Origin: Patescibacteria group bacterium
GTDB taxonomy: Bacteria; Patescibacteriota; Minisyncoccia; Moranbacterales; UBA2206
Direction: 5' to 3'
Assembly: GCA_022709735.1 (NCBI GenBank)
Contig: JAKLIG010000002.1
Span: 65,949-129,948 of the forward strand
DNA: 64,000 bases
This document shows, piece by piece, positions 3,110 through 40,961 of the stretch; the stretch's first letter is position 1, and every line of letters begins with the position of its first letter. The notes under the pieces are model-generated. The model ran no database searches and was not told the DNA's origin. It saw only the letters and a program-made list of their open reading frames with translations. Made by a program: the position numbers and the translations under genes.

Positions 3110-3142
3110 AAAAAACCACTCTTCACGAGTGGTTTTTTTGTG
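3110..3142 (+). terminator. rho-independent terminator after the PEP-utiliser gene
   Basis: aaaaaaccactcttcacgagtggtttttttg forms a perfect 9-bp stem followed by a T7 tract. Confidence 0.6.
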
Positions 3143-3229
3143 CCCTCAGTAGGAATCCCTGCCTGCCGGCAGGCAGGAAACCTACATCTCATTCTTAGGA
3201 CGGATTTGCTCCCCGCCTGCCATCGCCTG
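3141..3229 (-). pseudogene. partial duplicate of the tRNA-Arg 3' half (anticodon arm to 3' end), with a 20-bp perfect palindrome in the T-loop
   Basis: The minus strand reads AGCAAATCCGTCCTAAGAATGAGATGTAGGTTT[CCTGCCTGCCGGCAGGCAGG]GATTCCTACTGAGGGCAC. This is near-identical to positions ~22-73 of the adjacent intact tRNA but lacks the acceptor 5' strand and D-arm. Confidence 0.5.
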
Positions 3230-3301
3230 TGCCCTCAGTAGGAATCGAACCTACATCTCATCCTTAGGACGGATTTGCTCTATCCATTGAGCTATGAGGG
3301 C
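3230..3301 (-). tRNA. tRNA-Arg (anticodon CCU)
   Basis: Reverse complement GCCCTCATAGCTCAATGGATAGAGCAAATCCGTCCTAAGGATGAGATGTAGGTTCGATTCCTACTGAGGGCA folds as a cloverleaf. Acceptor stem is 7 bp, D-arm is GCTC/GAGC, anticodon loop is GTCCTAA, T-arm is GTAGG-TTCGATT-CCTAC. Confidence 0.8.
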
Positions 3302-3350
3302 AGAGGCAAAGGCGGGCAGGTATCCGTTGAACTACAGGGACAGAATTATT

Positions 3351-16842: not shown

Positions 16843-16928
16843 TACGAACTACGAAATGAACGAAATACGAAACATTTAAACTACCTTTCGTACTTTCGTA
16901 TTTAGTATTTATTTCGTAGTTCGTAAAC
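16843..16928. promoter_or_regulatory. conserved upstream element (inverted pair of the TTTCGTATTTCGTTCATTTCGTAGTTCGTAAA family) immediately 5' of rpsA
   Basis: The same ~32-nt motif is also found at 19865-19898 (5' of ftsH) and 35985-36031 (5' of the YraN gene). Confidence 0.5.
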
Positions 16929-19829: not shown

Positions 19830-19864
19830 TTAGGATAAATAAATTAAATACGTTCAGAATGAAA

Positions 19865-19898
19865 TTTTCGTATTTCGTTCATTTCGTAGTTCGTAAAT
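19865..19898. promoter_or_regulatory. copy of the TTTCGTATTTCGTTCATTTCGTAGTTCGTAAAT upstream element, 5' of ftsH
   Basis: Near-identical to the motif at 16886-16928 and 35997-36031. Confidence 0.5.
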
Positions 19899-21769: not shown

Positions 21770-21774
21770 CAAAT

Positions 21775-21890
21775 TTTTAATTTTTGAATTTTTAATTTTA
21801 TAAATAAATCCAAATTTCTTAATTTTTAAACATTTAGAAATTAAAGCATTATTTAAAAATTACAAAATTAAAAATTATAAAATTAATCTC
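21775..21890. repeat. AT-rich ~110-nt intergenic repeat (copy 1 of 2)
   Basis: ~85% identical to 37347-37458 (tttttgaatttttaattttataaataaatc...ttaatttttaaacatt...atttaaaaattat). Contains an internal inverted repeat. Confidence 0.7.
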
Positions 21891-26388: not shown

Positions 26389-28641
26389 TTAATTTATCTT
26401 TTTGAGTGGCGCGATTGAGCTGGCTAATTTTTTTAGCCCCGCCTTGGAAAACGCGACTGTGATGACATCGCCTTGGCTCGCAACTACGAGGCCTTCGCCA
26501 AAAGTTTCATGCTCAACTCTGTCTCCATCTTTAAAACTGGAATTAGGAATTATGAATTTAGAATTAGGAATATTTTTTTCTTTCTCCTGATTCCTAATTC
26601 CTGATTCCTGATTCTGCATTAGATGTTCCGGAATGTCGTCTAGAAAACGGCTAGGTGCATTAATTTGCGTTGAACCAAAAATATTTCGAGTTACGGTAAA
26701 TAATAAATATACTTTTTCCATCGCCCGCGTAATGCCGACATACATAAGTCGTCTTTCTTCTTCCATTTCACTATCATTTAGCATGCTTCTGGAATGTGGC
26801 AAAATCCCTTCTTCCAACCCTGCGATAAAAACTATTCGAAACTCCAAACCTTTGGCACTATGAAGCGTCATAAGATGCACCGCTTCGGACGCCTGATCAA
26901 TATTATCCGTATCTGAAATCAATGCCACTTCTTCCAAGAATAATTTCAAGGCTTCGTCGCCTTCGTATTCTTCGTACTTTTTCGCCACCGTCAAAAGTTC
27001 CCGCACATTTTCATGTCTCATTTCTCCTTCTTCTGTCCCATCCATTAAAAATTTTTCATAACCTGATTCGCTATAAACTTTTTGAATAAAATCCGTAAGA
27101 ATTAATTTATTTTTTAGTTCTGCCATCCGTTTTATAAAATCTGAAAATTTAACAATATTATCAATTCGTTGTTTGGAAATTGGAAATTGGAAATTGGAAA
27201 TTGCGAGGCCTTGAGATATTAAATCGAGATTATTACTCCTTGCTATATTAATCCATTTTCCCAAAGTAATATCTCCGACTCCTCGCTTCGGTTCATTTAT
27301 TATTCGCTCCAGCGAAGTTTCATCATTAAAATTATTGATAAGCCGGAGATACGCAATCACATCCTTGATTTCTTTTCGCTGATAGAATTTTACTCCGCCA
27401 ATAATCCGGTAGGAAATAGAATTTCTAAGCATCGCTTCTTCAATCATCCGGGATTGGGCATTGGTTCTGTATAAAACTACAAACTCATTTAATTTATAAT
27501 TATTCCTATTTTTCAAAGCTCTAATTTCATCCACGATAAACTGCGCTTCTTCTTTTTCATCTTCCGCTTCAAAACTTTGAATCAAATGTCCTTCCTTGTT
27601 TTCCGTCCAGATTTTCTTATCTTTGCGGTTTATGTTTTTGGAAATCACACCATAAGCTGCGTCCAAAATGTTTTGCGTAGAACGGTAATTTTGCTCAAGT
27701 TTTATAGTCTTGGCATTGGGATAATCTTTTTCAAAATCCAAAATATTTTGAATGTTGGCACCTCGCCAAGAATAAATTCCCTGCCAGTCATCGCCCACGA
27801 CGCAAAGATTTTTATTCTTTTCGGATAATAATTTAACTAGAATATATTGCGCATGGTTAGTGTCCTGATATTCATCCACCATAATATATTGAAAAAAGTT
27901 TTGGTATTTTTCCAAGACTTCGGGAAATGCCCGAAAAATTTTAACTGTGATCATCAAAATATCATCGAAATCCAAAGCGCCTTGTTCTTTCAATTTTTTT
28001 TGATAATTTAGATAAATTTTTGCCACCATTTCTTCAAAATATCCGCCGACTCCCGCCAAAAATTCTTCCGCACCGAGTAGTTCATTTTTAGCATTGGAGA
28101 TTGCGCCTAAAATTGTTTTTGGTTTGAATTGGTCAATATTAATTTCCATTTCTTTCATCACTTTTTTCATCAGAGCCAGCTGGTCTTGGTCATCAAAAAT
28201 GTTAAATGAACTTTTGTATCCAACTTTTTCAATTTCCCGCCGAAGAATTTTCACGCAAATCGAATGGAAGGTGCCAACAGTCGGCAATTCGTAATTTGTA
28301 ATTGGTAACTTGGATTCTTTTGAATTTTGGTCATTGGAATTTGAAAATTCATTGGAAACCTGCCTGCCGGTAGGCAAGGTTGGGATTTGGAAATTGGAAA
28401 TTGAATTTGCTGAAAGCAAATTTTTTATTCTTTCTTTCATCTCTCCCGCCGCTTTATTAGTAAAAGTCACCGCCAAAATTCTTCTCGGACTGATCTTTTT
28501 TTCACAAATCAAATACGCCACGCGGTGCGTAAGCGCTTTTGTTTTCCCTGATCCGGCGCCAGCAATAATCAACACCGGTCCTTCGGTGATCATTACCGCT
28601 TCTCTTTGCGGAGGATTAAGTTTTTCTAAAATTTCATTCAT
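26389..28641 (-). CDS. uvrD: ATP-dependent DNA helicase UvrD/PcrA family, with in-frame low-complexity insertions
   Basis: MNEILEKLNPPQREAVMITEGPVLIIAGAGSGKTKALTHRVAYLI motif I. Helicase motifs II-VI are present. 750 aa. Confidence 0.9.
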   Translation of the reverse strand: MNEILEKLNPPQREAVMITEGPVLIIAGAGSGKTKALTHRVAYLICEKKISPRRILAVTFTNKAAGEMKERIKNLLSANSISNFQIPTLPTGRQVSNEFSNSNDQNSKESKLPITNYELPTVGTFHSICVKILRREIEKVGYKSSFNIFDDQDQLALMKKVMKEMEINIDQFKPKTILGAISNAKNELLGAEEFLAGVGGYFEEMVAKIYLNYQKKLKEQGALDFDDILMITVKIFRAFPEVLEKYQNFFQYIMVDEYQDTNHAQYILVKLLSEKNKNLCVVGDDWQGIYSWRGANIQNILDFEKDYPNAKTIKLEQNYRSTQNILDAAYGVISKNINRKDKKIWTENKEGHLIQSFEAEDEKEEAQFIVDEIRALKNRNNYKLNEFVVLYRTNAQSRMIEEAMLRNSISYRIIGGVKFYQRKEIKDVIAYLRLINNFNDETSLERIINEPKRGVGDITLGKWINIARSNNLDLISQGLAISNFQFPISKQRIDNIVKFSDFIKRMAELKNKLILTDFIQKVYSESGYEKFLMDGTEEGEMRHENVRELLTVAKKYEEYEGDEALKLFLEEVALISDTDNIDQASEAVHLMTLHSAKGLEFRIVFIAGLEEGILPHSRSMLNDSEMEEERRLMYVGITRAMEKVYLLFTVTRNIFGSTQINAPSRFLDDIPEHLMQNQESGIRNQEKEKNIPNSKFIIPNSSFKDGDRVEHETFGEGLVVASQGDVITVAFSKAGLKKLASSIAPLKKIN

Positions 28642-35964: not shown

Positions 35965-36031
35965 TTTTTACGAAATACGAAAAGGCTTTTTAAATGTTTC
36001 GTATTTCGTTCATTTCGTAGTTCGTAAATAG
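35965..36031. promoter_or_regulatory. third copy of the TTTCGTATTTCGTTCATTTCGTAGTTCGTAAAT upstream element, 5' of the YraN gene
   Basis: cgaaatacgaaa...tttcgtatttcgttcatttcgtagttcgtaaatag. Confidence 0.5.
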
Positions 36032-36891: not shown

Positions 36892-37350
36892 ATGTATAAA
36901 TATAAAAAAATACTTTATATATTTTGTTTTTTATTTCTGATTTTTATTGACCAGTTATCAAAATATTTGATCCGCTTATACTACAGCGGATTTTATATTT
37001 GTAATCATAATTTGGCGTTTGGATTAAATTTGAAATGGGGGATTTTAATATTTATTTTTCTTTTTATTTTGATTGCTTTAAATTTTCAATTTAAAATTTT
37101 CAATTTAAAATTAATTTCAAATTTCAAATTTCAAATTTCAAATTGGAGCGTTTTAAATATATCCGGTATTATTTTGATTGCCTCTGGTGGCATTTCAAAC
37201 ATCATCGACCGCTTGCACTTTGGTTGCGTTATTGATTTTATCGATTTAAAATTTTGGCCTGTTTTTAATTTGGCTGATATCTACATTACGCTTGGTGTTA
37301 TACTTATATTAATCAGTTATTTCAAGAGTAAAGAAAAAAATAATTTTTAA
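36892..37350 (+). CDS. lspA: lipoprotein signal peptidase II, with an in-frame heptamer tandem repeat
   Basis: Conserved NIIDRLHFGCVIDFIDL...FNLADIYITLG C-terminal blocks. The internal LNFQFKIFNLKLISNFKFQISNW segment is encoded by (AATTTCA)n. Confidence 0.8.
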   Translation: MYKYKKILYIFCFLFLIFIDQLSKYLIRLYYSGFYICNHNLAFGLNLKWGILIFIFLFILIALNFQFKIFNLKLISNFKFQISNWSVLNISGIILIASGGISNIIDRLHFGCVIDFIDLKFWPVFNLADIYITLGVILILISYFKSKEKNNF

Positions 37351-37458
37351 TTTTTGAAATTTTTAATTTTATAAATAAATCTTAATGTCTTAATTTTTAA
37401 ACATTAGAAATTAGATATTATTTAAAAATTATAAAATTAAAAACTAAAAATTTTCAAA
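37347..37458. repeat. AT-rich ~110-nt intergenic repeat (copy 2 of 2)
   Basis: See 21775-21890. Confidence 0.7.
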
Positions 37459-38985
37459 GTGTCTTCCAAAGTTTTTTCGGCCGCGACCATAGGCCTCAAA
37501 AGTGAAATTGTCGAAGTAGAAGCCGATACGGTGAGCGCTGGCCTACATCAATTTAATATTGTTGGACTGCCTGACACAGCTGTTAAAGAATCACGAGACC
37601 GCGTGAGTGCGGCAATCAGAAATTCTGGCTTCAAGCCGCCTCATCGGGCTGGTCGGGTTACAATCAATCTCGCTCCGGCTGATCTCAAAAAAGAAGGACC
37701 AATTTATGATCTCCCGATGGCGCTCGGATTTCTTCTGGCCACCGAACAAATCGCTTTTGATTTCAAGGATAAAATATTTTTAGGTGAACTGTCGCTCGAC
37801 GGGAAAGTTAGAGGAGTTAAAGGCGTGCTTCCAATGGCAATTTTAGCCAAAGAAAAAAATATTAAAGAGCTTTATATTCCAAAAGACAATGCCAAGGAGG
37901 CCTCTGTTATCGAAGGCGTGGAAATTTTTCCAGTGTCAACTTTAATTGAACTTATTGAACATTTAATCGGGGAAAACAAAATTATTCCAGCCGAAAAAAT
38001 AAATCTGGAAGAACTTTTTTCTTATGAAGATTATCTGGTGGATATGTCGCATGTTCGCGGGCAAGAACATGCCAAACGCGCACTGGAAATTGCCGCCGCG
38101 GGTGGGCACAATGTAATTTTGAACGGTCCACCTGGATCAGGAAAAACACTTCTCGCCAAAACTATGGCCTCAATTTTGCCAAAACTAACTGTCGCGGAAG
38201 CGCTGGAAGTTACTAAAATATTTTCTATTGCCGGGCAACTTCCGAGAAATAACGCGCTCATTACCAAGCGGCAATTCCGCTCACCTCATCATAGCGCCTC
38301 GGCAGTTTCTTTGGTTGGCGGTGGAACATTCCCGCGTCCGGGAGAAATCAGTCTTTCTCATCGAGGAGTTTTATTTTTAGATGAATTTCCCGAATTTTCG
38401 CGATCAGTTCTGGAAAATCTTCGTCAACCTTTGGAAGACGGAATCATTACAGTTTCTCGCGCTCAAGGCACAATGGAATTTCCAGCGCGTTTCACCCTAG
38501 TCGCTGCGATGAATCCGTGCCCCTGCGGAAATGCCACTGATCCAGAAAAAACTTGCGTTTGTTCGCCGGCTTCGATTATAAAATACCAGCGAAAAATTTC
38601 TGGGCCGATTATGGATCGAATTGATCTCCATGTCGAAGTACCGCGCATTAAATTTGAAAAACTTTCCGAAGATCCTATCGGAGAAAAATCAGCTGAAATC
38701 CGAATTCGCGTCGAAAAAGCTCGAAGCATTCAAAAAGAAAGATTTCTAAATTCAAAAACTATTTCGAACAGCGAAATGGGCAGCGAACAAATCAAAACTT
38801 TTTGCAAATTAACACCTGAATCACTAGAACTTATGCGCATGGCTGTTTCCAATTTTCATTTGAGCGCGAGAGCCTATTATCGCATCATTAAAGTTGCCAG
38901 AACCATCGCTGATTTAGAAGAACTTGAAAAAATCTCTCCCGCCCACATCGCCGAAGCTTTGCAATATCGCTTTAAGGCAGAATAA
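37459..38985 (+). CDS. YifB/ComM-family Mg-chelatase-like AAA+ ATPase
   Basis: VRGQEHAKRALEIAAAGGHNVILNGPPGSGKTLLAKTMASILP. C-terminal Mg-chelatase subunit ChlI-like domain. GTG start. Confidence 0.85.
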   Translation: MSSKVFSAATIGLKSEIVEVEADTVSAGLHQFNIVGLPDTAVKESRDRVSAAIRNSGFKPPHRAGRVTINLAPADLKKEGPIYDLPMALGFLLATEQIAFDFKDKIFLGELSLDGKVRGVKGVLPMAILAKEKNIKELYIPKDNAKEASVIEGVEIFPVSTLIELIEHLIGENKIIPAEKINLEELFSYEDYLVDMSHVRGQEHAKRALEIAAAGGHNVILNGPPGSGKTLLAKTMASILPKLTVAEALEVTKIFSIAGQLPRNNALITKRQFRSPHHSASAVSLVGGGTFPRPGEISLSHRGVLFLDEFPEFSRSVLENLRQPLEDGIITVSRAQGTMEFPARFTLVAAMNPCPCGNATDPEKTCVCSPASIIKYQRKISGPIMDRIDLHVEVPRIKFEKLSEDPIGEKSAEIRIRVEKARSIQKERFLNSKTISNSEMGSEQIKTFCKLTPESLELMRMAVSNFHLSARAYYRIIKVARTIADLEELEKISPAHIAEALQYRFKAE

Positions 38986-40058: not shown

Positions 40059-40961
40059 ATGCAACCAAAAAAATCGTTAGGACAAAATTTTCTAAGAGAT
40101 AAGAATGTTTTGGAAAAAATTATTGCATCCGCTGATTTGAAATCGGATGATTTTGTGATTGAAATCGGACCGGGGGAGGGAGTCTTAACAGAAGAATTAG
40201 CAAAACACGCTGGAAAAGTTTTAGCGGTTGAGATTGATAAAACTTTGGCCGATAAATTAAAAGAAAAATATAAAAATAACAAAAAAATAGAAATTTTAAA
40301 TGATGATATTTTGAAAATAAATCTGCCGGAAATACTCCGTCATTCTGAGCGGAGCGAAGCGAAGTCGAAGAATCTGCTAGATAATATTACTAGTAATAAT
40401 AACCGAAAGATCCTTCGACTTCGTCCGAGTACGGACTTCGCTCAGGATGACGATATTAATTATAAGCTAATTGCCAACATCCCATATTACATCACTTCTC
40501 CAATCATCCAATTATTTTTAGAAACAAAATATCCGCCAAGCGTTATGATTTTGATGGTGCAAAAAGAAGTCGCGCAGAGGATTTGCGCAAACCCCGGACA
40601 GATGAGCATTCTCGCTGTGAGCGTGCAATATTATTCCAAGCCGGAATTATTATTTTATGTCGACAAAAAAAGTTTTTATCCGGTGCCGGAAGTGGACAGC
40701 GCGGTGATAAAAATTTCAGGAATCAGGAATTATGAATCAGGAATTATGAATCAGGAAGAAACAAAAAAATTCTTTAGAATTGTCAAGGCTGGATTTTCCG
40801 CCAAACGAAAAATGCTTCTCAATAATTTGTCCAGCAGTTTACATCTCGAAAAAAAACAAGTTGAAGAAAAATTAAAAAAAGTTGGAATATCTCCGGCCTC
40901 AAGAGCGCAAGAACTCTCCATGGAAGATTGGAAAAATATAGCGACTCTAATTTACGAATGA
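40059..40961 (+). CDS. rsmA: 16S rRNA (adenine1518/1519-N6)-dimethyltransferase, with two in-frame repeat insertions
   Basis: SLGQNFLRDKNVLEKII...IEIGPGEGVLTEEL SAM-binding N-terminus. Confidence 0.9.
   Translation: MQPKKSLGQNFLRDKNVLEKIIASADLKSDDFVIEIGPGEGVLTEELAKHAGKVLAVEIDKTLADKLKEKYKNNKKIEILNDDILKINLPEILRHSERSEAKSKNLLDNITSNNNRKILRLRPSTDFAQDDDINYKLIANIPYYITSPIIQLFLETKYPPSVMILMVQKEVAQRICANPGQMSILAVSVQYYSKPELLFYVDKKSFYPVPEVDSAVIKISGIRNYESGIMNQEETKKFFRIVKAGFSAKRKMLLNNLSSSLHLEKKQVEEKLKKVGISPASRAQELSMEDWKNIATLIYE

Follow-up and report, generated by a model that had tools for sequence, protein, structure and literature searches.

Heptanucleotide arrays and a 21-nt hairpin found across phyla occupy variable loops of a Moranbacteria PcrA helicase

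Introduction

How does a gene coding for an essential-type DNA helicase come to carry several blocks of simple repeats and palindromic DNA that lie in frame with the rest of its coding sequence? This question is raised by a pcrA/uvrD-type gene of a Patescibacteria group bacterium (Moranbacterales, UBA2206), found in a stretch of 64,000 nt of GenBank assembly GCA_022709735.1 (contig JAKLIG010000002.1, positions 65,949 to 129,948), which is hereafter referred to as the window and which has a G+C content of 35.6% and is ~88% coding. A sequence-only reading of the window had described three in-frame insertions in this gene and had ascribed them to an active insertion process that preserves the reading frame. 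All three repeat blocks were recovered by Tandem Repeats Finder (TRF) and by palindrome search, and they are dispersed DNA modules of two kinds, i.e., heptanucleotide arrays (T-N4-A-A on one strand: TTTCCAA, TCAGGAA, TTACGAA) and a GC-rich hairpin of 21 nt. The main point, absent from that earlier reading, is that the palindrome belongs to a family of hairpins distributed across phyla.

Three Repeat Blocks in the Helicase Gene

The host gene codes for a typical PcrA/UvrD helicase of superfamily 1 (SF1): the protein contains the Pfam domains UvrD-helicase (PF00580), UvrD_C (PF13361) and PcrA_UvrD_tudor (PF21196), each exceeding its cut-off, as well as motifs I, Ia, GTFHS and II to VI and a C-terminal Tudor domain. 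It matches Geobacillus PcrA (PDB 1pjr) with an E-value of 1.6e-206 over aligned residues 3-78 and 122-749. A database protein 100% identical to it carries the name Candidatus Moranbacteria, and the window helicase is the only member of its 90% cluster. Its best 120 relatives are from Moranbacteria/Parcubacteria and measure 709-812 amino acids (aa), a few being longer owing to inteins. Five Moranbacteria orthologues of ~1100 aa (P0010, P0050, P0059, P0081, and P0116) contain intein domains (PF14890), and inteins are another class of selfish insert in the pcrA of these bacteria. The gene and its repeat blocks are as follows.

26389..28641, minus strand: pcrA/uvrD-type SF1 helicase coding sequence (CDS), 750 aa, host of the three repeat blocks (PDB match and Pfam)
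28282..28413, minus strand: site A, aa 77-120, composite insert that separates motif Ia from GTFHS (PcrA alignment, 35 orthologues, AlphaFold)
28380..28403, minus strand: site A, heptamer array TTTCCAA/ATCCCAA (coding strand) immediately upstream of the hairpin, peptide ISNFQIP
28359..28379, minus strand: site A, 21-nt hairpin, coding strand CCTTGCCTACCGGCAGGCAGG, peptide (T)LPTGRQ(V)
28327..28356, minus strand: site A, 30-nt degenerate-heptamer block TCCAATGAATTTTCAAATTCCAATGACCAA, peptide SNEFSNSNDQ
28286..28312, minus strand: site A, heptamer array TTACCAA TTACAAA TTACGAA, peptide LPITNYE (TRF)
27173..27203, minus strand: site B, (AATTTCC)x4.4 array in a loop of domain 2B, aa 480-489, peptide ISNFQFPISK (TRF)
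26536..26616, minus strand: site C, aa 676-702, two inverted heptamer arrays in the linker that joins domain 2A to the Tudor domain

At site B, TRF reports (TTGGAAA)x4.4 at 27173-27203 with 100% matches; the four perfect GGAAATT units and the peptide ISNFQFPISK that had been reported there are present, the units spanning 27175-27202 and not 27177-27212. Site A yields TTGGAAA x2.4 at 28387-28403, units of this type extending over 28380-28403, and an AATTTGT-type array at 28286-28312, which can also be written as AATTACN units; arrays of this family recur in a HypF-like gene and, in other PcrA orthologues, at the C-terminus. Between the two arrays stands the palindrome CCTGCCTGCCGGTAGGCAAGG (28359-28379), for which shuffles give 0 expected matches; IPTLPTGRQVSNEF is a stretch of insert peptide. 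Site C consists of two arms inverted to each other, GGAATTA x4.7 at 26539-26571 and TCCTGAT x4.3 at 26585-26614 (TRF), and the z-score of its DNA fold is weak (-2.4).

These repeats exceed chance expectation. Six period-7 tandem tracts occur in the window, five of them in CDSs, against 0.05 expected from local shuffles, and period 7 (plus its multiple 14) is clearly the most enriched among tandem periods 4-15. With at most two mismatches, GGAAATTGGAAATT has 13 matches (4.5 expected) and GGAATTAGGAATTA has 10 (1.6 expected), counts that were reached in 0/100 dinucleotide shuffles. The arrays are made of head-to-tail 7-nt units whose copy number differs among relatives, as in heptanucleotide simple sequence repeats (SSRs).

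Insertions and Variable Loops

The extent to which the blocks lengthen the protein was measured, anchor to anchor, in an alignment with 35 orthologues at 69-83% identity (alignment A1). Site A, which had been placed between helicase motifs I and Ia, is actually flanked by motif Ia (TFTNKAA, aa 59-65) on its N-terminal side and by GTFHS (aa 123-127) on the other; its segment of 50 aa is the longest of the set (minimum 13, median 29), and residues 79-121 stand opposite a six-residue loop of 1pjr (PcrA 83-88). The segment of site B, with 19 aa, equals the orthologue median, and that of site C, with 31 aa, is near the minimum of 28 (median 37). Only site A is a net insertion, ~37 aa above the shortest orthologues, while sites B and C, no longer than in relatives, are variable loops now filled with repeat DNA in a length-neutral manner; of the three insertions originally proposed, one thus stands. 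At site B the heptamer array replaced ancestral residues, after an adjacent deletion, and some relatives carry there up to 26 residues more than the window, hairpin included.

All three blocks occupy indel hot spots of PcrA that vary strongly among the 35 orthologues, which have 0 to ~45 extra residues of unrelated sequence at the three sites. An AlphaFold model built on A1 (mean predicted local distance difference test score, pLDDT, of 72) gives coil with pLDDT <50 for aa 82-115 at site A and aa 653-699 at site C, and at site B pLDDT 76-90 with a helix at 474-479, a DSSP helix at 481-483 and coil at 484-489, i.e., a short interhelical loop in domain 2B. The hot spots are thereby predicted to be a disordered loop after motif Ia, a short 2B loop and a disordered pre-Tudor linker. 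Two more hot spots of pcrA (A1 columns 398-422 and 629-670) are empty in the window and filled in P0002, P0005, P0008, P0014, P0020, P0030, P0043, and others; judged by back-translation, the fillers look like translated GC-rich palindromes (LCGNRRGSFASLPHRQASAQDGK, ICHPELVSGSQEIPDQVRNDK, PASTREDDRSSTRGG, PASTRGDDRSSTRGG, TPSPSPYKGEG). One of the relatives, L001, has a CCCTCTCCTT...AAGGAGAGGG hairpin at two sites and in two frames.

The surface position of the inserts is one where interaction loops could evolve, and the segments might be thought of as lineage-specific functional loops selected as protein or, alternatively, as assembly artefacts. Both ideas are scarcely credible and already contradicted by orthologues, reading frames and the diversity of assemblies: the segments are unconserved even in close orthologues, the same DNA is read in three frames, and the hairpin occurs in assemblies of differing assemblers and platforms and in two cultured isolates. 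The earlier reading had itself named conserved loops lacking repeat structure as the outcome that would overturn it, and the orthologue alignment gave the opposite, i.e., unconserved segments, repeat-structured DNA, and modules found again at further sites, genes and genomes.

Movement of the Modules among Relatives

Codon alignments of the window pcrA with three syntenic loci (L001, L002, and L003) and searches among further orthologues locate the same modules at different sites. The 24-nt ACCTTGCCTACCGGCAGGCAGGTT of window site A, read as TLPTGRQV, has an identical copy at site B of L001, and site C of L002 holds a 22-nt copy of the hairpin in a different frame (KPCLPAGRQ). A survey of 120 orthologues gave nine occurrences of the hairpin, which are read in three frames: a single one at site A, that of the window, six at site B and two at site C. 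The TCCAATGAATTTTCAAATTCCAATGACCAA block of window site A is present at site B of L001, L124, L125, and L126; when the hairpin is left out, ~60 nt of window site A align with site B of L001, the hairpin occupying a different unit boundary. A metagenome scan with the 30-nt block recovered it, flanks included (AISNFQFPISNEFSNSNDKISKQKIK), in a HypF-like gene that is not homologous to pcrA (L129). There it forms a ~20-aa insert relative to solved HypF, and VTNYELR and ISNFQFP tracts occur elsewhere in the gene. The recurrence of the site C unit in ksgA, already noticed in the sequence-only reading, is borne out by ~45 nt common to pcrA site C and ksgA 40716-40770, which include the following block.

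40716..40757, plus strand: TCAGGAA/TTATGAA heptamer block in frame in ksgA, SGIRNYESGIMNQEE

Site B illustrates the turnover of arrays. A short ATTTCTAATGATCAA stands there in L003, and the array is expanded in L125 and L124; in L001 and L126 it is joined by the hairpin, and in the window and L002 four perfect units are followed by a deletion of neighboring ancestral codons. The arrays of L003, L125, L124, L001, and the window differ by whole unit blocks. Taken together, the sequences of Moranbacteria orthologues indicate that heptamer and hairpin modules have been gained, lost, expanded and moved.

Purely local instability, i.e., slippage of AT-rich heptamers and chance palindromes arising in place, with no dispersal, would account for part of these observations. 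Heptanucleotide repeats are described as the commonest long SSRs of prokaryotes, with slippage as the proposed cause (Mrazek et al., 2007, as cited in PMC4679880; PMC4692102); the whole-unit differences between close relatives at site B agree with it, and an ancestral ATTTCTAAT at that site could have been the seed of the array. However, slippage cannot account for one GC-rich hairpin of 21-24 nt that recurs at three sites of pcrA, read in different frames, and in a further 120 genomes or more. Nor can it place a common 30-80-nt block at sites A and B of pcrA as well as in a HypF-like gene, or give site C and ksgA the 45 nt that they share. As the sole cause local instability is contradicted and we consider it improbable; it survives as the mechanism of array-length change only.

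Pairs of filled and empty sites give the form of the hairpin insertions. At site A, CAAATCCCAA^ATTCCAATGA in L003 corresponds to CAAATCCCAA[21 nt]TTTCCAATGA in the window; at site B, GATCAAA^TTTCAGAA in L125 corresponds to GATCAAA[21 nt]TTCCAAAA in L001; and at site C, within a cluster of at least 90% identity, P0115 (L131) has a related 30-nt hairpin, CCTGCCCGCAATGCATTCGTTGCAGGCGGA, between AGA and AAAAAA, which P0143 (L132) lacks. The insertions (21, 21, and 30 nt) are clean, with a target duplication in none of the three pairs. A model that explains the heptamer arrays as traces left by successive hairpin insertions, each with a 7-bp target-site duplication (TSD), and that was prompted by the matching 7-mers that flank the hairpin, was rejected because the members of these three pairs share their unit number and differ only by the hairpin.

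Another use of the tracts, as contingency (phase-variation) loci that toggle pcrA, ksgA, and lspA by frameshift, is very improbable. A change of one heptamer unit does shift the frame, and in a cluster of at least 90% identity two members (P0026 and P0125, as compared with P0124) have frameshifted, truncated C-termini that start exactly at the site C repeat, with loss of the Tudor domain. Each of these alleles comes, however, from a single short contig and could be either a real variant or an assembly error; the tracts are short (~4 units), the hosts are housekeeping genes and not surface or restriction genes, and 35/35 aligned orthologues are in frame through their tracts.

The 21-nt Hairpin across Bacteria

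The exact 21-mer was found in at least 120 stretches in a scan of one genome per species, as compared with a calculated chance expectation of ~0.3 in 596 Gb. Its hosts are at least 120 species-level genomes of ~13 phyla, and it lies in coding as well as non-coding DNA. Among the matches listed are Bacteroidota, Ignavibacteriota, many lineages of Patescibacteria, Planctomycetota, Omnitrophota, Nitrospirota, WOR-3, Elusimicrobiota, Bipolaricaulota, Thermodesulfobacteriota, Chloroflexota, Bdellovibrionota, and Gammaproteobacteria, with several genomes recurring three to four times. Flagellimonas oceanensis 40DY170, Galbibacter sp. EGI 63066 and a Cyclobacteriaceae contig of 5.9 Mb are among the carriers. 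A phage origin was considered and set aside, with one match in 2.9 million viral contigs.

The hairpin is asymmetric, one strand folding around a CCGG loop, with a G.T wobble and a bulged A, and it is commonly preceded by runs of A and followed by runs of T; position -1 is A in 91/121 copies and position +1 is T in 75/121. Its surroundings often retain the heptamer pattern. When the two flanks are joined, the period-7 signal reaches 0.37, as compared with 0.26-0.30 for other periods and 0.30 in distal controls, and the 7-mers on the two sides match at 6 or more of 7 positions in 33/121 copies (3.4 expected). Strongly heptamer-periodic flanks accompany 34/123 copies (28%, vs. 1.7% in the control), and all 34 of these array-borne copies stand at a unit boundary, nearly all units being T-N4-A/G-A/G when read on the CCTTGCC strand; the orientation of the hairpin is therefore coupled to the strand of the array. 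The hairpin inserts preferentially at the AA^T unit boundary of arrays, in an orientation that is fixed relative to the array strand. In a minority context, 17 copies (~5 expected) have flanking stems of at least 5 nt and the hairpin is the tip of a longer palindrome. Apart from such structure, the flanks of different copies are mutually unrelated.

About 40% of the copies (50/125) lie within long open reading frames (ORFs), the intragenic copies being those detectable by a long-ORF screen, and the ORFs run through them in frame. Each of the five frames that lack a stop is used (LPTGRQ, 17 copies; LAYRQAG, 14; LPAGRQG, 12; CLPVGK, 5; PCLPAGR, 2), and the sole frame with a stop contains TAG. 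Variants of 20 nt, e.g., CCTGCCTRCCGGYAGGCAGG, occur in the same loci and are nearly all non-coding. The hairpin is frame-neutral because this variant measures 21 nt, while the heptamer unit is not frame-neutral, and selection must therefore filter array lengths; the frame-preserving insertion process originally proposed is not supported.

Several lineages have individual arrangements. In five Sphingobacteriales loci (L008, L027, L031, L032, and L037) the hairpin tips a longer conserved repeat, ...GGGGGATAGACAAATAAAAAAAGATA...GCGTGTTA[hairpin]AAACGCCCAAATCAT..., which has several copies in one genome and sometimes a second, degenerate hairpin alongside. A locus of Moraniibacteriota (L063) and one labeled Bdellovibrionales (L099) have the hairpin at the same position of what is apparently the same protein (DEVSVE-TLPTGRQ-VENL). 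The two genomes are assigned to different phyla, and the coincidence could stem from an insertion common to the orthologues, from a repeated insertion at this position or from faulty binning.

Such exact conservation could also be that of a functional nucleic-acid signal under selection, for instance a protein- or RNA-binding hairpin with heptamer binding arrays, an intragenic terminator or pause signal, a recombination site or a DNA-uptake signal, the intragenic copies being a by-product. An asymmetric hairpin exactly conserved in ~13 phyla, its fold on one strand and the A and T runs around it would all fit a signal of this kind, as would heptamer blocks located immediately upstream of genes; the TAACTGA repeats of Beggiatoaceae, Cyanobacteria, and Bacteroidetes have been proposed to be regulatory (PMC4679880). 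We nevertheless regard a functional signal as rather unlikely. The presence or absence of the hairpin at a given site is erratic among close relatives, its orientation is unbiased relative to transcription, copies are embedded well inside housekeeping ORFs, a place in which termination would do harm, and identity across phyla argues against a species-specific motif such as the DNA-uptake sequences, which are very dense in their genomes and tied to a competence receptor. The hairpin as a known RNA family was likewise rejected: a search of its surroundings against Rfam gave nothing with E <0.4, and in the window only tRNAs reached the gathering threshold. Literature searches on the hairpin sequence, on the peptides LPTGRQ/LPAGRQ/LAYRQAG and on palindromic elements of Patescibacteria returned nothing relevant, with a limited coverage that leaves novelty unproven.

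Other Repeats and Palindromes in the Window

Repeats of the same kinds are found outside pcrA.

40338..40455, plus strand: imperfect palindrome of ~115 nt, in frame in ksgA (DNA fold z = -7.1)
37080..37144, plus strand: AATTTCA-type heptamer arrays in frame in lspA, LNFQFKIFNLKLISNFKFQISN (TRF)
3158..3177, strand not assigned: perfect 20-nt form of the hairpin, CCTGCCTGCCGGCAGGCAGG, non-coding (fold z = -3.2)

The arms of the ksgA palindrome, CGTCATTCTGAGCGGAGCGAAG...CTTCGCTCAGGATGACG, are read in frame as RHSERSEAKSKNL...LRPSTDFAQDDD and add a net ~32 aa beyond B. subtilis KsgA. In lspA, AATTTTC and AATTTCA arrays of opposed orientation form a 35-nt palindrome, and the encoded tract apparently falls, to judge from a protein alignment, within the membrane-spanning part of signal peptidase II.

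The 20-nt hairpin lies in an incomplete copy of tRNA-Arg(CCT), exactly where the T-loop would be: this copy reads ggaatc[hairpin]aaacc, and the true gene ggaatcgaacc. The duplicate (3140-3228) covers the 3′ half and adjoins the intact gene (3229-3301), ARAGORN and Rfam calling the intact copy and not the duplicate. The intact tRNA gene is itself bracketed by GC-rich inverted arms, CCCGCCTGCC...GGCGGGCAGG (3212-3237 and 3295-3320), which resemble half-sites of the hairpin, as though the tRNA were the loop of a hairpin-like palindrome.

Two further families are dispersed in the window. A 32-nt heptamer block, TTTCGTATTTCGTTCATTTCGTAGTTCGTAAA, has three intergenic copies (16843-16874, 19864-19897, and 35995-36028), one of them with an inverted partner and one with a -10-like box (TGcTATAAT) and then a start codon after it; heptamer blocks therefore also lie immediately upstream of genes. 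An AT-rich repeat of ~110 nt with internal inverted arms has two copies (21771-21890 and 37341-37460), each directly 3′ of a plus-strand gene, the second one after lspA.

Comparison with Known Repeats and Mobile Elements

The behavior of the hairpin is closest to that of the Rickettsia palindromic elements (RPEs), which are summarized in a review as palindromes of ~100-150 bp, dispersed in many copies and found in frame in unrelated housekeeping genes of Rickettsia and in non-coding DNA (Ogata et al., 2000, reviewed in PMC10969869). Both involve dispersed palindromic DNA in frame in unrelated housekeeping genes and in non-coding DNA of a small-genome bacterium, both place insert peptides at permissive positions where the fold tolerates them, and the ~115-nt palindrome of ksgA (z = -7.1) is RPE-like in size. 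In contrast, the hairpin is 21 nt long and the pcrA blocks are heptamer arrays; the hairpin is probably unrelated to RPEs in sequence, is spread over ~13 phyla instead of one genus, is coupled to heptamer arrays, and has as its host a bacterium of the Candidate Phyla Radiation (CPR). Given this host and the cross-phylum spread, membership in the RPE families of Rickettsia is implausible.

The arrays recall the long 7-nt SSRs (Mrazek et al., 2007) and the TAACTGA repeats (PMC4679880), which, as far as these accounts describe them, are short tandem heptamer arrays with T-N4-R-A units, phylogenetically scattered, upstream of genes and occasionally within them, and spread by an unexplained mechanism. 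The arrays reported here differ in that the units vary by site, arrays are frequent in ORFs, blocks are common to unrelated genes, and a hairpin is embedded at unit boundaries in a fixed orientation, an arrangement of which no description was found in the literature searched.

Mobile G+C clusters and hairpin elements of mitochondria are also GC-rich hairpins scattered in an AT-rich genome, single or beside tandem arrays, and occasionally found at length-variable positions of rRNA or protein genes (PMC2800124). They are organellar and lineage-specific, whereas the bacterial hairpin crosses phyla and its detected intragenic copies are read through in frame. [quoted passage not shown] MITEs have terminal inverted repeats derived from a parent insertion sequence. 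The arms of the hairpin could be read as abutting inverted repeats, but with a total of 21 nt it is far below the size of MITEs (~50-500 bp), the three filled/empty comparisons gave no TSD, and no parent insertion sequence is known for it, none having been looked for genome-wide.

Proposed Origin of the Inserts

Taken as a whole, the explanation that we favor, and hold to be reasonably probable, is that the blocks are dispersed repeat modules, including a selfish or mobilized hairpin, whose survival is filtered by reading frame, stop codons and permissive loops. Heptamer arrays would lengthen and shorten by slippage, in line with earlier proposals (PMC4679880; PMC4692102), and blocks of 45-80 nt would spread from array to array through ectopic recombination or transposition. 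The hairpin would be a selfish or mobilized element with strand-specific insertion, probably mobilized as folded single-stranded DNA that is recognized through its conserved bulge and mismatch, in the manner of the repetitive extragenic palindromes (REPs) and their REP-associated tyrosine transposases (RAYTs) or of the insertion sequences IS200/IS605, with their single-strand (HUH, Y1) transposition. Among gene copies, only those that are in frame, free of stops and located in permissive loops would survive selection, and such a filter would allow an essential-type helicase, ksgA and lspA to carry inserts. The insert peptides themselves are probably without function.

The mobilization step, drawn by analogy, is the weakest part of this explanation. 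The likeness to REP/RAYT and IS200/IS605 systems includes a short imperfect palindrome with a conserved bulge or mismatch, present in many copies and falling within the 20-40 nt of REPs, as well as insertion without target duplication, in a specific orientation, next to a short AA^T target. REPs are by definition extragenic and species-specific, whereas the hairpin is ~40% intragenic and identical across phyla.

Several observations weigh against the favored explanation. A letter-perfect asymmetric 21-mer in distant phyla is hard to square with the species-specific co-evolution of REPs and RAYTs, and a function could be involved. No RAYT or TnpA was found linked to the hairpin, a tblastn search of ~1 Mb of hairpin loci with an approximate IS200-type TnpA query giving one weak match and no mobilizer. 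The replication-strand bias to be expected of single-strand transposons, i.e., toward the lagging-strand template, is not significant, the GC skew on the hairpin strand, a weak proxy measured in 8-kb loci, being positive in 63 cases and negative in 45 (p = 0.10). Transcription strand shows no bias beyond that imposed by stop codons, with 33 of the 50 ORF copies in the same orientation and 17 in the opposite one (30:20 expected), and ~70% of all copies have neither heptamer nor inverted flanks. Turnover is read from relatives at 76-83% identity and one cluster of at least 90% identity instead of from the organism's own population, and the insert peptides are deduced from DNA reading frames. Repeat-derived inserts that are tolerated and turn over are what remains of the earlier reading, its count of insertions, its placement relative to the helicase motifs and its frame-preserving process having been revised; that the process is active is suggested by turnover among relatives, including the 30-nt hairpin present or absent within the cluster of at least 90% identity.

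A more far-reaching proposal, which we put forward tentatively and as something short of probable, is that the hairpin and its 20- and 30-nt relatives form an undescribed mobile or templated element of many phyla, which machinery spreads by clean insertion in one orientation at 5′-AA^T-3′ and which, in company with the heptamer arrays, would keep writing short peptides into surface loops of housekeeping proteins. The T-N4-AA arrays would then supply AA^T junctions in series, and some copies would be found at the tips of other palindromes.

Significance

The favored explanation would extend to the CPR a phenomenon described chiefly in Rickettsia, i.e., selfish DNA within genes that code for proteins, and several hot spots in a single helicase display the effect. 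In metagenome annotation, inserts of this kind make proteins longer and yield spurious low-complexity regions and small ORFs, and they mark loops that tolerate foreign peptides. A 21-nt hairpin that is identical in distant phyla and has a defined target and orientation is a lead toward either a new mechanism of mobilization or a conserved hairpin-binding function, and it has a link to heptanucleotide arrays, which are known to abound in prokaryotes but have yet to be explained. Should the more tentative proposal of a widespread mobile or templated element prove true, it would open a way of approaching the direct heptamer repeats of several phyla (e.g., TAACTGA), which still lack an explanation. 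The hairpin and the arrays together suggest a little-described kind of selfish DNA that is tolerated in the floppy loops of proteins.

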